This document shows, in pieces, positions 4,993 through 9,132 of a stretch of 64,000 nt of DNA. Numbering within the stretch: the first letter of the stretch is position 1; every line of letters starts with the position of its first letter. This DNA comes from a virus. The stretch lies in the IMG/VR virus record IMGVR_UViG_3300025508_000006, positions 32,001-96,000 of that record. One strand, 5' to 3'. The notes beneath the pieces are model-generated. The model was given only the letters and a program-made list of their open reading frames with translations. It did not search any database and was not told the DNA's origin. The translations under genes and the position numbers were made by a program.

Positions 4993-5020
4993 AAGGGGAC
5001 GCGAAAGCGTCCCTTTTTTA
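4993..5020 (+). terminator. Rho-independent terminator between convergent operons
   Basis: GGGGACGC-GAAA-GCGTCCCT hairpin followed by a T run. Confidence 0.9.
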
Positions 5021-6391
5021 TTACCAGGAATACTGTGAAGAGCGTATTCCAAAACTATTTGTAGGGTTCAATATATAATTACCAGCACCGCTACTAGAAG
5101 ATACATTATTCTGAGTTGTTGTCGGAGCATTAACATTACTCACATTAGTAATATTCACTGTAGCACCTTCACCTGCCGAAATTGATGATCTAGCAATTGC
5201 GCCACTCAGTTCTTCTCGATCTGTTGATTTACTTAATCTATCAGCAGTAATTTTCTTGTTGGCACTTACAATAGAATCTGATAGAGTTTCAGGAGTCAAC
5301 TCGGCAACAGTAGTTCTACTACCAGCACCTCTTGATTTTACTCTACTTCTACTTGAACTTACACTTGTCAAAACTTCTTCTTCGGAAGCAGACTCTACTT
5401 TAGGCGCACTACCTGATCCACCACTCATTACGTGATTCCACTCTTTCATGAATGCACTTGCAGGTGATTCACCACCGGGCATAATAGCACCTATAGCGGC
5501 AACTGCACCACGTGCGAATCCTTCGAGTACATTGAATATTGTATCTACAACAACTCCGAACGTATCAGAGAAAGAAAACGAGTCAAGCAACTTAGAGAAG
5601 TTTTCGAGTCCCATCTTTTTCATCAACCATGATACACCATCTTTAAGTAAGTCAAGAGGAATCAGAACTATGTTTGCAAGACCTTTCTGTATTCCCTTTG
5701 CTAGTCCTAGAAATTTATCAAATATATCAGCACCCTCACCAAGACTGGTCATCTCTTTAAAGACTGCCATTCCCACTTCGATTGCCGCAGTGAGTGGAAG
5801 AAATACTCTACCGAGTAATCTGAAGAACCCGAAGAACTTAGCGAATGTTGCACCGAATCCTTTAACGAATGTAACTATAGGTTGGAAGAATTTACCGATT
5901 GAAGAGAAGACTTTGCCTATAACACCTCCTTTACCAAAGAATGAACCGATGCGTCCAAAGAAATCTGTCATTGGTTTAAAGAATGTGCCTACTTTTGCTA
6001 CTGCTCTACCAATCGCGCCGTCGGCAGAGAAGATTGCTTTTAACTTATTACTCCATTTAAGAAACTTTGCGCCAATATCTAGTCTAAACATTTTCAGAAT
6101 TTTGTTTAAGGTTTCACCGAAACCAGTAACGAATCCTACAACTGCACCAGTAAGACCAGCAACAATGGCAGCAAACCCGAAGTTTAGTCCTTTAACATTT
6201 TCTTCTGGTTTTGATCCTTCGGCAGGCACAGCAGGAGCAGATTCGCCAATACGTTCGCGCATCATTTCCATCTCGTCCATCTTATTACTAAACCAAAGTG
6301 TAATAAAATTATCGAGTCTACGGTCAACACGACTAAGTGTTTCATTAGTCTGCATCTGTTCTAGTACTACGTCATCCAGTGTTAGCGCCAT
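5021..6391 (-). CDS. Putative tape measure / baseplate hub protein (gp29-like position)
   Basis: Ala/Gly-rich with amphipathic F-periodic repeats (FFKPMTDFFGRIGSFF...); directly downstream of gp26/gp51. Confidence 0.55.
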   Translation of the reverse strand: MALTLDDVVLEQMQTNETLSRVDRRLDNFITLWFSNKMDEMEMMRERIGESAPAVPAEGSKPEENVKGLNFGFAAIVAGLTGAVVGFVTGFGETLNKILKMFRLDIGAKFLKWSNKLKAIFSADGAIGRAVAKVGTFFKPMTDFFGRIGSFFGKGGVIGKVFSSIGKFFQPIVTFVKGFGATFAKFFGFFRLLGRVFLPLTAAIEVGMAVFKEMTSLGEGADIFDKFLGLAKGIQKGLANIVLIPLDLLKDGVSWLMKKMGLENFSKLLDSFSFSDTFGVVVDTIFNVLEGFARGAVAAIGAIMPGGESPASAFMKEWNHVMSGGSGSAPKVESASEEEVLTSVSSSRSRVKSRGAGSRTTVAELTPETLSDSIVSANKKITADRLSKSTDREELSGAIARSSISAGEGATVNITNVSNVNAPTTTQNNVSSSSGAGNYILNPTNSFGIRSSQYSW

Positions 6392-6572
6392 TATTCTCTC
6401 TCTCTTGCTTCTCTTCTTCTAAAGTTTGCATTAACAGTATCATGTGTACCTCTCTCTCCCATGGCATCATAACCTCTAACTCTGTTAATGAATACTTATG
6501 ATACCTGGATAGCAAAAAATTAGTCTTAAAATGATTTGCTAGATTGTCGTGAGACAGGCATACTAGAAAAAA
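6372..6572 (-). CDS. 51: Baseplate hub assembly protein gp51-like (no own start codon; -1 frame of gp26)
   Basis: Frame reads FFLVCLSHDNLANHFKTNFLLSRYHKYSLTELEVMMPWEREVHMILL...*, with the typical gp51 motif HKYSLTELE.MMPWERE. Confidence 0.8.
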   Translation of the reverse strand, partial: FFLVCLSHDNLANHFKTNFLLSRYHKYSLTELEVMMPWEREVHMILLMQTLEEEKQERENNGANTG

Positions 6573-7258
6573 CTCTGCATTCCCTCCAGTACAACATTAT
6601 TATGTGTACCACATTTTTCGCAGTCAAACTTAACTTCATGTTTAACTGACGGCATATCTTTCAAATAAGTCGATATCTTTTCGAACTGCTGTTGAGTCAT
6701 CGTATCGATAAATCCATCGATACTATCCTTCGATTCATCTGCCATTACAATTCTTTCTTCTTGAGTAATAACAGTCTTCATACACTTACCAAGAACACTA
6801 AACCCTGCTTCTGCTTCATCTTCGGTGAAGTCAACCATAGCATAACTCGGATACATCATCTCTACTGAGATACTATCACTTAATTTTATGATGTTATTCT
6901 TCTTACCTACTTTACATTCAATCTCGCCAATATCAACTAACTGCTCATTGTCGTGATCACACTCTTCGCAAGCGATGTTTAATGTAACAACTTCGCCTAC
7001 AGACTTTGCTCTGATCTGAAGAAACATATATTCAATATCAAATGTTGTCAATTCATTTCGTTTGATAGCATTGCCGTCAAGACATGCCATGACTGTATCA
7101 AGTACTGCATTCATTATCTGACCTATGTCTTTCGATTCAGATGCTATCAGTAAAATCTTCTCTTCTTTAACTAAGTAAGGTCTAAACTTAACTTTCTTCT
7201 TCAACGATGGAACTGTCAACTCATATTTGGGTGTATCATTTAACGATGGTAATGCCAT
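6563..7258 (-). CDS. 26: Baseplate hub subunit/chaperone gp26
   Basis: MALP...P.YEL..PS....KFRPYLVKEEKILL, FDIEYMFLQIRAKSVGE, two CxxC motifs, and LEGMQSFF end. Confidence 0.92.
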   Translation of the reverse strand: MALPSLNDTPKYELTVPSLKKKVKFRPYLVKEEKILLIASESKDIGQIMNAVLDTVMACLDGNAIKRNELTTFDIEYMFLQIRAKSVGEVVTLNIACEECDHDNEQLVDIGEIECKVGKKNNIIKLSDSISVEMMYPSYAMVDFTEDEAEAGFSVLGKCMKTVITQEERIVMADESKDSIDGFIDTMTQQQFEKISTYLKDMPSVKHEVKFDCEKCGTHNNVVLEGMQSFF

Positions 7259-7278
7259 TATTTAATTTCCTCAATAAT

Positions 7279-8010
7279 TTAATTTAGTGCTTTGAATATC
7301 TTGTTTGTTACTTTACTTGCCGCATTTGTTGATGCCGCTCCAGTTCCTGTTATTCCTACCTTTCCTTTATCTGCCGGTTCTAAGTACTCACCCTGCCATG
7401 ATTTGTATGAAAACTCTACTGTGAACTGACTAATCTCATTCTGCGATGCATCTGTAAACGTCTCATACTGAATTGACTTGGGAAATGCACGATCAAGTAA
7501 CCAATGATAGTTTGCAAATCCACTTGTTCCTGCATCAACATCTATATCAAGATTAAGAGAAATAGGACCAAGATTAATATCTTTACTAACATTAAATAGT
7601 GGTGTAGTAAATCCCTTTTCTAGTTGATAGATGTGAACTTTCTGACAGTATGTATCTGCATAACCAGCAACGTATCTTCCTTCGCCCGCATCACCAACAC
7701 GTTTAATAATACTATCCATCCAACTCTCGAAGTATCGTCGTGTTCCCTGATCATTCATCACTCTGAATGTCATACTGACTTCTGGATTGTTAAACCCATA
7801 TGCTACTTGCTGTATATCAGCACCAATCTCTCGTGCAACTGTACTAATTTGTCTCGACGGAAGTGTAACACTTGTACACATGAAGGACATATCTCTTGGT
7901 GATTGATCTCCTATACGTGGTAAAAGAACGTGATACAGGTTGGGTCTTGCCGCACCTCCTTTACTGCCAAATACGCTTTTAAATTCGTCTACGCTACCAG
8001 GTCTAAACAT
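7279..8010 (-). CDS. Tail-tube-like baseplate protein (gp54/gp19 family)
   Basis: GGAARPNLY.V, C.SVTLP.R, YFESWMD, AFPKSI and FTVEFSY: tube-protein fold motifs. Confidence 0.75.
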   Translation of the reverse strand: MFRPGSVDEFKSVFGSKGGAARPNLYHVLLPRIGDQSPRDMSFMCTSVTLPSRQISTVAREIGADIQQVAYGFNNPEVSMTFRVMNDQGTRRYFESWMDSIIKRVGDAGEGRYVAGYADTYCQKVHIYQLEKGFTTPLFNVSKDINLGPISLNLDIDVDAGTSGFANYHWLLDRAFPKSIQYETFTDASQNEISQFTVEFSYKSWQGEYLEPADKGKVGITGTGAASTNAASKVTNKIFKALN

Positions 8011-8609
8011 TAGATCATGCTCCGTGAATCTTTATAAACTTGCCCTTTGTTACCCTGGAATTGTGCAGTTGGTAAGAAAGTAGCGATTTCCCATTCTGGA
8101 GGTGGCACATATGCCATACGCCCTTCAATCTGAGATGTTAAGTAGTGCTTGAGACAAGGTTTAAAGAATCGCATCTTCGCACTTCTCTGAAGCATAGAAT
8201 ATCTGGTCTGAAACTTTGTGGTTTCGTCGAATGCTTTATTATTAGTAACCTTCATTAACTCATCAAGAAATCTTGCACGTAATGCGATAGGCAAGTAATG
8301 AAGATTCAACCCATAGAAACCACCCTTTGCAGGACCAACAATGATAACTAGAGGAAATGCATCCCAGTAAGGAAGTGTTTTTCTACCTTTAGCATCATAG
8401 AAATACATGTACATGTCACCGATGCCAGTCTTTTGTTTCGCCTGATTAGCACCACGCAATTCTAATTCTTCTTCGCGCATTAATGCACGTCGATTAAGAC
8501 CACGCATATTCTGCACTTTACGTCTGAACCAAGACTGCGATTCTTTAGTGCGAGGTGTAATACCTGCACGAAACGCTTCTGCTTCTACTTTTTTAAATAT
8601 TTCGCTCAT
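8010..8609 (-). CDS. 2: DNA end protector gp2
   Basis: GDMYMYFYDAK...LPYWDAFPLV, GLNLHYLP, CLKHYL and WEIATFLP. Confidence 0.93.
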   Translation of the reverse strand: MSEIFKKVEAEAFRAGITPRTKESQSWFRRKVQNMRGLNRRALMREEELELRGANQAKQKTGIGDMYMYFYDAKGRKTLPYWDAFPLVIIVGPAKGGFYGLNLHYLPIALRARFLDELMKVTNNKAFDETTKFQTRYSMLQRSAKMRFFKPCLKHYLTSQIEGRMAYVPPPEWEIATFLPTAQFQGNKGQVYKDSRSMI

Positions 8610-8613
8610 AGTT

Positions 8614-9132
8614 CTATTTAGTCTTTTTCCTAGAGTATGGTTTCATTTTCTTTAAAGGTTTAATACTTTTCTTTGGTTTTGCTTTCTGAGTTGACTTAGG
8701 CATAATACCCATTGCAGTCAATTCATTCTCAGTCCATATCTCAAAACCCCAACCATTATCCTTAGCATATGCTGCCGCCGCTTTCCATTTGTTCTGATTC
8801 TTAATGTAAGTCAAACCTTCGTTGATATATCTTTTAGTTTTACGTGAACCTGTGGGCGGTGATAGTTCTTTGTGAGGTTTGATTTCAATCAGCACAGTCT
8901 TGCCTGTACTCTTGTATGTCAACTTCAAGTCCATGAAGTAACGATGATATCTCATATCAACTTCATAGAGATACGGTATTACGGTCTCTTCGCTTGACCA
9001 GTACTTAATGTCAGAGTTATCGTCTGCCCACATAAAGGCATATTTTTCCCATAGAGAGCGATAAACGACCTTATTATAATCCCCTTTGTACTTTTCAGGG
9101 TTTTTAACTTTATATCTTCCAGAATACGCCAT
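8614..9132 (-). CDS. 4: Head completion nuclease gp4 (TnsA-like)
   Basis: MAYSGRY..KNPEKYKGD, YRSLWE, WSSEE.VIPY, HRYFMD, IEIKP and NQNKWKAA. True start is Met45 of the track ORF. Confidence 0.93.
   Translation of the reverse strand: MAYSGRYKVKNPEKYKGDYNKVVYRSLWEKYAFMWADDNSDIKYWSSEETVIPYLYEVDMRYHRYFMDLKLTYKSTGKTVLIEIKPHKELSPPTGSRKTKRYINEGLTYIKNQNKWKAAAAYAKDNGWGFEIWTENELTAMGIMPKSTQKAKPKKSIKPLKKMKPYSRKKTK

Follow-up and report, generated by a model that had tools for sequence, protein, structure and literature searches.

A conserved T run at the end of gp26 and a predicted −1 frameshift into a gp51-like tail in a T4-like phage

A single gene of a T4-like phage very probably yields two tail assembly chaperones, one short and one long, by a −1 slip at a run of T residues. 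The gene encodes a gp26-like protein and lies on the minus strand of the 64,000-nt stretch of DNA analyzed here (the window). It ends in a slippery sequence that leads directly into a second reading frame for a gp51-like tail. Judging from the sequences of this locus and its relatives, we consider it highly likely that the fused product is made. The full reading, in which a ribosomal −1 shift gives rise to short gp26 and long gp26-51 chaperones, appears probable.

The gp26-like gene (7258-6563, minus strand), the equivalent of the short chaperone 'G', is an ORF of 231 aa that matches Pfam PF12322 (T4_baseplate) over profile positions 1-218 of 219 (E 3.5e-58), and also matches PHROG 150 at positions 5-232 of 282. 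The genome is that of an uncultured freshwater phage. Read along the minus strand, the last codons of the ORF are GAG GGA ATG CAG AGT TTT TTC TAG. The first-pass annotation placed the heptamer T_TTT_TTC (6572-6566) at this end, with GGAGG 10 nt upstream, and the sequence confirms both. Relative to the gp26 frame the heptamer has the X_XXY_YYZ phase, and the gp26 stop codon TAG (6565-6563, minus strand) abuts it. The GGAGG core (6587-6583) ends exactly 10 nt before the heptamer and is part of an SD-like GGAGGG (6582..6587, minus strand).

The −1 frame is closed upstream by the stop codons TAA TAA (6602-6597, minus strand) and is open from 6596 to a TGA at 6374-6372. The two TAA codons form the upstream bound of the 31-nt interval to which the shift would be confined. 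The gp51-like tail, the equivalent of 'T' (6372..6566, minus strand), comprises 64 codons and the TGA. The −1 peptide matches PHROG 634 ('baseplate hub assembly catalyst', gp51) with E 1.2e-21, and also PHROG 150 ('baseplate hub') toward its C terminus, at positions 236-278. It had been claimed that the gp51 frame is exactly the −1 frame, with TAA stops upstream and with no ATG, GTG or TTG before the conserved motif. This proved correct: the earliest such codon is TTG 6515, which is the 18th of the tail, whereas the CTG at 6557 is the 4th. As in a lambda G/GT-type pair, two ORFs overlap, the second is in the −1 frame and has no start codon of its own, and the heptamer is in phase. Only one PF12322 gene was identified in 116 kb of phage genome, and the record is ~67% complete, which leaves room for a second, long gp51 elsewhere. 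A megablast search of positions 5000-8700 against the phage collection returned no near-identical record.

The genes are in the order tube-like gene, gp26, tail, tape-measure-like gene. Directly upstream of gp26 is a gene of the tail-tube family (7279..8010, minus strand; PHROG 45 'tail tube', E 6e-27, with a weak match to Pfam Phage_T4_gp19). Downstream, the tape-measure-like gene (5021..6391, minus strand; 456 aa, PHROG 27688) shares 20 nt with the 3′ end of the tail ORF, in agreement with the claim that the pair lies just upstream of such a gene. PHROG 27688 is common to the 456-aa protein and to the downstream protein of Melnitz, which also matches the tape-measure PHROG 1535. Language-model neighbor clusters of the 456-aa protein include PF25671 (T4_Tape_measure, score 0.94), which we treat as a lead only. 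A BLAST comparison of this protein with T4 gp29 was not significant (E 0.11). Thus, we conclude that the pair is located between tube and tape-measure genes, with moderate confidence in the tape-measure half of this assignment.

An alignment of gp26 3′ ends, which had been suggested as a check, covers 67 non-redundant relatives that share the layout (gp26 identity 44-100%). The tail is in the −1 frame in all 67 and an in-phase T_TTT_TTN occurs in 66, counts that overstate the statistical support, as the relatives are not phylogenetically independent. The Z position of the heptamer varies freely (T 51, C 13, A 1, G 1) and the preceding six bases are T in 66 of the 67, which is the pattern expected of an X_XXY_YYZ site. 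Across these genes as a whole, only 68% of Phe residues are encoded by TTT, and T is the third base in 68% of the codons for Asp, Asn and AGY-type Ser. Measured against this background, the conservation of heptamer and phase exceeds chance. The stop codon abuts the heptamer in 52/67 relatives. Within the aligned tail, conservation begins at the first codons, with L4, H6, L9 and F17 invariant.

The claim of an internal SD at dnaX-like spacing also found support. The SD-like element of E. coli dnaX precedes its heptamer by 10 nt, and the spacing in the phage is the same. Among the relatives, a GGAG, GAGG or AGGA core is present 7-14 nt upstream in 44/67, versus ~5% expected; the motif is partly forced by conserved (E/K/R)-Gly residues and is missing in a third of the relatives. 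The Glu codon at this site is GAG in 20 cases and GAA in 7, compared with a background of 465 GAG and 1064 GAA. The enrichment bears on the ribosomal mechanism because an SD-like element matters only there. Unlike E. coli dnaX, which has a strong downstream hairpin, the phage site is abutted by a stop codon, and folding of the 46 and 90 nt after the site revealed no stimulatory downstream RNA structure (z +0.2 and −0.7, respectively).

In the proposed mechanism, most ribosomes would halt at TAG 6565-6563 and release the 231-aa short form. A minority would slip back by one base on T_TTT_TTC (6572-6566), either in tandem with two Phe-tRNAs or with a P-site Phe-tRNA while the stop codon is in the A site; both routes would give the same peptide. 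The slipped ribosomes would read CTA GTA TGC CTG and onward, adding the gp51-like tail of 64 residues. The predicted long form is ~295 aa (~34 kDa) with the junction ...GMQSFF-LVCLSHDN..., and the predicted junction peptide is ..GMQSFFLVCLSHDNLANHFK. Likely stimulators are the stop codon next to the heptamer and the GGAGG that precedes it by 10 nt. On the model of lambda G/GT and P2 E/E′, the tape-measure-like product of the next gene would be coated by the short and long forms alike, and the long form would use its tail to recruit tube subunits. Synthesis of the fusion, the ribosomal nature of the shift and the binding partners are inferred; what the sequences and the model show directly is the anatomy of the locus, the conserved −1 phase and heptamer, the homology of the tail to the T4 gp51 C-terminus, the chaperone fold and the gene order.

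The structure of gp26 was compared, as an AlphaFold model (pLDDT 84), with 48,161 chains. The top three matches, all to residues 1-96 of the model, were 3fgx (Z 8.4), 2ob9 (Z 6.8 over 85 residues) and 3klu (Z 6.3), followed by a match at Z 4.6. 2OB9 is the HK97 tail assembly chaperone and 3KLU is B. subtilis YqbN. These Z values are moderate, and sequence identity of gp26 to the three proteins is 4-11%. Foldseek gave 2ob9 a probability of 0.72, with no match at E <= 0.001, and a profile search of gp26 against solved structures returned nothing meaningful. The model indicates that the N-terminal ~90 residues of gp26 share the HK97 tail assembly chaperone fold. Residues 97-231 have no counterpart in 2ob9, 3klu or 3fgx. 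Compared with the lambda proteins, gp26 has an additional module of ~140 residues that includes four invariant cysteines.

Proteins of T4 carry the same domains in a different arrangement. T4 gp26 consists of the PF12322 domain alone, and T4 gp51 matches the same model over the full domain (residues 1-201, E 3.9e-52) and continues into a tail homologous to the −1 peptide. The two tails align by BLASTP at T4 gp51 residues 207-249 (E 0.001) and by hhalign at residues 206-243 (E 1.5e-4, probability 52%), and T4 gp51 itself matches PHROG 634. On these domain and profile matches, T4 gp51 is a paralogue of gp26 that carries the same tail, and its architecture is that of the predicted fusion. No other observation argues as strongly that the tail can function as an extension of a gp26-type domain. 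T4 genes 26 and 51 are truly separate and divergently transcribed, so the frameshift applies to the cyanophage and marine/freshwater type and not to T4. The first-pass proposal that gp26 and gp26-51 are the T4-lineage version of G/GT is supported for the former type, where fold, gene order and phase agree with it, and does not extend to a frameshift in T4.

Phages with a separate long gp51 provide a clean natural control. Seven Straboviridae of this kind were compared. The long gp51 was seen beside gp26 in T4, JS10, JSE, fHyAci03 and Aeromonas 25; in the other two, the neighboring gene is named merely 'baseplate' or 'baseplate hub'. The T run, and with it the in-phase heptamer, is absent from gp26 in 7/7, although five of the seven retain ..EFF.. 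in the protein, coded GAG TTC TTT, GAA TTC TTC or similar. Vibrio phage VmeM-32 and Aeromonas phage AsFcp_1, which are deep Straboviridae, have GAT TTT TTT or GAT TTT TTC followed by a −1 tail and are without a long gp51 at the gp26 locus. Thus, the T run is kept where there is a −1 tail and is recoded away where there is a separate long gene. When viral contigs were searched for gp26 of the T4 type, only 7 near-identical loci emerged, and diverse isolates were retrieved individually instead. In an unrooted tree of 33 rows, selected by hand from the loci, three clean groups meet at one node: gp26 of single-gene loci, gp26 of two-gene loci, and the gp51 N-domains. This topology is compatible with either the frameshift or the two-gene state as the ancestral one.

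The same fusion could arise by transcriptional slippage, in which the polymerase adds one U within the T run so that some of the mRNAs would have gp26 and the tail joined in a single frame. One inserted U would encode the identical protein, and 52/67 relatives have runs of 7-8 T. Established bacterial slippage runs, such as those of Thermus dnaX and Shigella mxiE, are about 9 long, but run length across the 67 loci is 6-8 and never at least 9. A T8 run is no more than the heptamer and the first base of the stop codon, and the run is only T6 in this phage and in 14 more of the non-redundant loci, which are spread over the relatives. Low-level slippage on runs of this length may nevertheless occur. 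Neither the enriched SD-like element nor the adjacent stop would have a role for a polymerase. Contigs assembled from RNA libraries show only the unedited T6, although contigs cannot reveal rare variants. The title of Vladimirov et al. (2022), taken as a title, may hint at a route that does not involve the ribosome. On balance, slippage by the polymerase is unlikely, and a ribosomal shift is favored at the T6 site.

Alternatively, there may be no fusion, and the tail may be translated alone as a gp51 of ~60 aa (~7 kDa) by termination-reinitiation at a non-canonical codon close behind the gp26 stop, for example CTG 6557, or from TTG 6515. Many cyanophage records do annotate a small free gp51, and GTG is the second tail codon in 14/83 loci of the first survey. 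However, the best conserved part of the tail, residues 1-17, lies entirely before the first canonical start at codon 18. The CTG reads CTC in most relatives, and the GGAGG, at ~25 nt from CTG 6557, is too far away to serve as its ribosome-binding site. Free translation also leaves the invariant in-phase T run unexplained, as well as its loss exactly where a long gp51 exists, and the T4 tail is part of one polypeptide with a gp26-type domain. We consider this explanation improbable for the present locus.

The tail ORF of cyanophages, phiM19, a Paraglaciecola phage and AF3 has an ATG one to five codons in, just after or overlapping the gp26 stop (S-PM2 and P-SSM2 among the cyanophages), and in these phages the sequences make a free small gp51 possible. 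A more specific version of the preferred reading, that of a ribosomal −1 shift, can be formulated. The shift would depend on the dnaX-like internal SD and the abutting stop, without a downstream structure, and/or the lineages with the ATG would make three products. We put this forward only tentatively. If the first part is true, no −1 frameshift of a T4-like phage would have been defined mechanistically before this one; on the second, S-PM2, P-SSM2 and phiM19, in which the ATG is just inside the tail ORF, might produce a short form, a fused long form and a free tail. Either part would extend what can be credited to the 2022 article.

The last alternative, that a sequencing error in the homopolymer has split what is really one gp26-51 ORF or that the locus is a decaying pseudogene, is effectively refuted: homopolymer runs are error-prone, but the phase is the same in 67/67 diverged relatives and in isolate genomes, third-position variation in the tail is typical of purifying selection, a word search found no longer in-frame fused protein sharing words with the tail (weak evidence), and assembled contigs from four studies (three metatranscriptome runs and one DNA run) all have the same unedited T6 with no indel, and therefore no assembly error.

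Vladimirov, Gautam & Davidson reportedly described the gp26/gp51 tail assembly chaperones of T4-like phages in Virology in 2022 (566:9-15). Passages in later articles credit that work with the finding that some T4-like phages have a short gene and a long fused gene (PMC10885494), and with poly-T slippery sequences in TAC-N genes of T4-like phages (PMC12846349). As far as these passages go, the idea of a frameshifted chaperone is already published for T4-like phages and the locus adds no new principle. The family (PF12322) and the tail are the same, and both arrangements are reproduced here. Nothing essential differs from the system as it is credited in those passages; the present case is an uncultured freshwater member with T6 instead of the commoner T8.

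In cyanophages and marine phages, gp51 genes reach only ~20% of the length of the T4 gene (Sullivan et al., 2010, PMC3037559). The gp51 genes of these phages are often without a plausible start, and hundreds of GenBank records annotate a truncated gp51 or none. A −1 shift from gp26 would explain this puzzle of short gp51 annotations, and annotation as a gp26 / gp26-51 pair would correct such loci. It would also bring T4-like phages into line with the rule described for other long-tailed phages, in which the genes for a short and a long chaperone immediately precede that for the tape measure.

In lambda, the short and long chaperones G and GT are encoded in overlapping frames and the −1 shift occurs near the 3′ end of the first ORF, at the heptamer G_GGA_AAG. 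The lambda pair is flanked, as Xu, Hendrix & Duda reportedly described in 2004, by the genes for the tube and the tape measure protein. The phage locus has the same −1 layout near the end of the first ORF and the same position between tube and tape-measure genes. In contrast, the lambda proteins are much smaller, the heptamer differs, and there is no detectable sequence similarity. According to what Christie et al. reportedly found in 2002, the E/E′ pair of P2 involves a −1 shift on T_TTT_TTG. P2 is also a myovirus with a contractile tail and its heptamer is T-rich, but the proteins belong to a different family. The gp26 end of Rhizobium phage AF3 carries T_TTT_TTG, exactly the P2 heptamer.

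Comparative and structural evidence strongly supports the proposal of the first-pass annotation that gp26 and a predicted gp26-51 fusion (the short and long forms) are the T4-lineage equivalent of the lambda tail assembly chaperones G and GT. The gp26-like gene is a minus-strand ORF of 231 aa (7258-6563) with the 3' end GAG GGA ATG CAG AGT TTT TTC TAG. The heptamer T_TTT_TTC (6572-6566) lies in the X_XXY_YYZ phase of this ORF, with the stop codon TAG (6565-6563) immediately 3' of it and an SD-like GGAGG (6587-6583) upstream, separated from it by 10 nt. Translation shows that the gp51-like -1 frame, on the same strand, is closed upstream by TAA TAA (6602-6597), runs through the heptamer and continues for 64 more codons to TGA (6374-6372); its first ATG, GTG or TTG is the TTG of codon 18 (6515). 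On rechecking the ORF end, heptamer, stop, GGAGG and -1 frame, we found everything previously stated about the sequence to be correct.

The gp26-like ORF encodes a full-length T4_baseplate domain (Pfam PF12322, E 3.5e-58), the family of T4 gp26, and only one PF12322 gene was identified in the 116 kb of this genome (a record about 67% complete). The -1 peptide, referred to here as the tail, matches PHROG 634, "baseplate hub assembly catalyst" (gp51; E 1.2e-21). A second match is to the final 45 positions of PHROG 150, "baseplate hub", a profile whose positions 5-232 correspond to the gp26-like ORF. Some GenBank records already name gp26 homologues "tape measure protein assembly chaperone" or "baseplate hub assembly chaperone". 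Upstream of gp26 is a minus-strand gene of the tail-tube family (8010-7279, identified by a tail-tube PHROG), itself preceded by a gene for the gp2 DNA end protector (PHROG). Downstream, a minus-strand gene encodes a 456-aa protein (6391-5021) with no Pfam match and no significant BLAST similarity to T4 gp29. Both this protein and its downstream counterpart in Methylophilales phage Melnitz belong to PHROG 27688; the Melnitz protein also matches a tape-measure PHROG. Language-model neighbors of the 456-aa protein include clusters with PF25671 (T4_Tape_measure), a lead only. Thus, the designation "tape-measure-like" is reasonable but indirect. The ATG of this gene (6391) sits 20 nt within the end of the tail ORF (6372-6391), an overlap suggesting that the long chaperone form and the tape measure are translationally coupled.

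T4 transcribes genes 26 and 51 in divergent directions, which rules out their fusion by a frameshift. In that phage, gp51 (249 aa) comprises an entire PF12322 domain (residues 1-201, E 3.9e-52) and a C-terminal segment homologous to the -1 peptide of the window, and T4 gp26 (208 aa) is the PF12322 domain alone. Thus, the short and long architectures predicted here are precisely those that T4 encodes in separate genes. The C-terminal ..RGLKEFF.. of T4 gp26 is homologous to ..LEGMQSFF in the window, but its EFF is encoded GAG TTC TTT (T4 locus L083, 3803-3850, minus strand); conservation of the amino acid motif does not depend on the slippery run. The T4 ..GLKEFF.. motif is three codons before a stop codon that overlaps the gene 25 start. 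The T run is absent from gp26 in all six further two-gene phages (Karamvirus, Jiaodavirus, Dhakavirus, Lazarusvirus, Krischvirus and Aeromonas phage 25), where gene 25 directly follows gp26; the divergent neighbor is annotated gp51 in four of the six, and the Karamvirus and Jiaodavirus records call it just "baseplate" or "baseplate hub". We identified no gp51 gene at the gp26 locus of two deep Straboviridae, Vibrio phage VmeM-32 (annotated record) and Aeromonas phage AsFcp_1 (unannotated record, read by frames). These encode GAT TTT TTT CTA TAA and GAT TTT TTC GAT TGA, respectively, and in each a gp51-like tail continues in the -1 frame. It is telling that the T run is retained wherever the tail is in the -1 frame and recoded where it is not. 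A tree of selected gp26 and gp51 N-domain sequences places the two-gene phages in one clade, so this comparison approximates one evolutionary contrast and not seven separate ones.

With the tail as query, tblastn recovered about 500 phage records, mostly of Kyanoviridae cyanophages; phages with Methylophilales, Pelagibacter, Sinorhizobium, Rhizobium, Pseudomonas, Vibrio, Caulobacter and Paraglaciecola hosts are among the others. We compared 80 metagenomic relatives (44-100% gp26 identity) and eight isolates, with counts made on 67 non-redundant loci. Conservation of the heptamer and -1 phase across T4-like phages, posed earlier as a check, was confirmed: the tail is in the -1 frame in 67/67 loci and T_TTT_TTN is in phase in 66/67, the exception being G_TTT_TTT. 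The last base of the heptamer is T in 51 loci, C in 13, A in one and G in one, and the preceding six bases are all T in 66/67. Elsewhere in the same genes, TTT accounts for only 68% of Phe codons, and T-ending codons for only 68% of Asp, Asn and AGY-Ser codons. The stop codon adjoins the heptamer in 52 of the 67 loci. Tail alignments are conserved from the first codons (L-[VI]-C-L-S-H-[DE]-x-L...), with invariant residues at positions 4, 6, 9 and 17, each of which precedes this lineage's first canonical start. The CTG at 6557 is replaced by CTC in most relatives and thus is not a conserved start. Hundreds of GenBank and RefSeq records annotate the tail in differing ways: it is left unannotated in some (S-WAM2, the ACG-2014 series), cut to an internal start in Melnitz and Milchi, and assigned an ATG start in S-PM2. 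Among the records inspected, none annotates it as joined to gp26.

A -1 shift on T_TTT_TTC would produce ...GMQSFF-LVCLSHDN..., and the identical peptide would result from a tandem Phe-tRNA slip or from a P-site tRNA slip with the stop codon in the A site. Transcriptional slippage in the T run could also join the frames, and we consider a fusion product made by either shift mechanism highly probable. For the window, we favor a ribosomal -1 frameshift as the likely route. The run is only T6 here and in 14 other non-redundant loci scattered among relatives (T6 in 15 loci, T7 in seven and T8 in 45), and the longest run in any relative, T8, amounts to the heptamer together with the stop codon's T. 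An SD-like core 7-14 nt upstream occurs in 44/67 loci versus about 5% expected, although a third of loci lack the motif and conserved residues partly dictate it. For the Glu that precedes the conserved Gly, the codon is GAG in 20 cases versus GAA in seven (background 465 versus 1064). Folding of the sequence after the site detected no downstream RNA structure. Free translation of the tail is unlikely in this lineage, as there is no start. In S-PM2 (L084, 1204-1210), P-SSM2, phiM19, Paraglaciecola phage GD1 and AF3, an ATG lies one to five codons inside the tail ORF and sometimes overlaps the gp26 stop (ATGA), and all five keep an in-phase T_TTT_TTN; judging from these sequences, they might make a free small gp51 besides the fusion. 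Assembly error at the T run is excluded by contigs from three RNA libraries and one DNA library that carry T6 without an indel, although these are uninformative regarding rare edited transcripts.

Against 48,161 solved chains, an AlphaFold model of the gp26 ORF (41-sequence alignment, mean pLDDT 84) gave three leading matches, each over residues 1-96: 3fgx, an uncharacterized Geobacillus protein (Z 8.4); 2ob9, the HK97 tail assembly chaperone (Z 6.8, 85 residues aligned); and 3klu, B. subtilis YqbN (Z 6.3), encoded between the tube and tape-measure genes in PBSX-type prophages. The fourth-ranked structure reaches only Z 4.6, and 2ob9 is the sole compact Foldseek match (probability 0.72). These scores are moderate but coherent, and the model points to a tail assembly chaperone identity for the N-terminal part of gp26. 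The remaining 135 residues contain four invariant cysteines (C97, C100, C213 and C216) in two CxxC pairs, which the model places within or next to two beta-hairpins (strands 90-96/103-109 and 206-212/219-225). This region weakly resembles the zinc ribbons of LysW, ZitP and NrdR (Z about 3). A zinc site in the gp26-type chaperone is probable from the model, and would be unusual compared with lambda- or HK97-type chaperones.

The frameshift reading of the gp26/gp51 pair is already known, and the window adds one more example, from an uncultured freshwater phage. The genes named in a 2022 study by Vladimirov and colleagues are reportedly gp26 and gp51. As cited in the PRFect paper, that study described some T4-like phages with a short gene and a longer fused gene and no frameshift (PMC10885494); a 2025 article refers to it for T4-like phage TAC-N genes with poly-T -1 slippery sequences (PMC12846349). 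Sullivan et al. (2010; PMC3037559) observed that the first ~200 residues are missing from the gp51 of cyanophages and marine vibriophages.

The stretch 6200-7300 occurs nearly unchanged in freshwater and aquatic metatranscriptome contigs from several studies; two of the contigs carry a few substitutions (6620 G>A, 6641 T>C and 6650 C>A; 6995 G>A and 6998 T>A). This phage or close strains recur in freshwater samples, and its presence in RNA libraries may reflect transcription or carried-over DNA.
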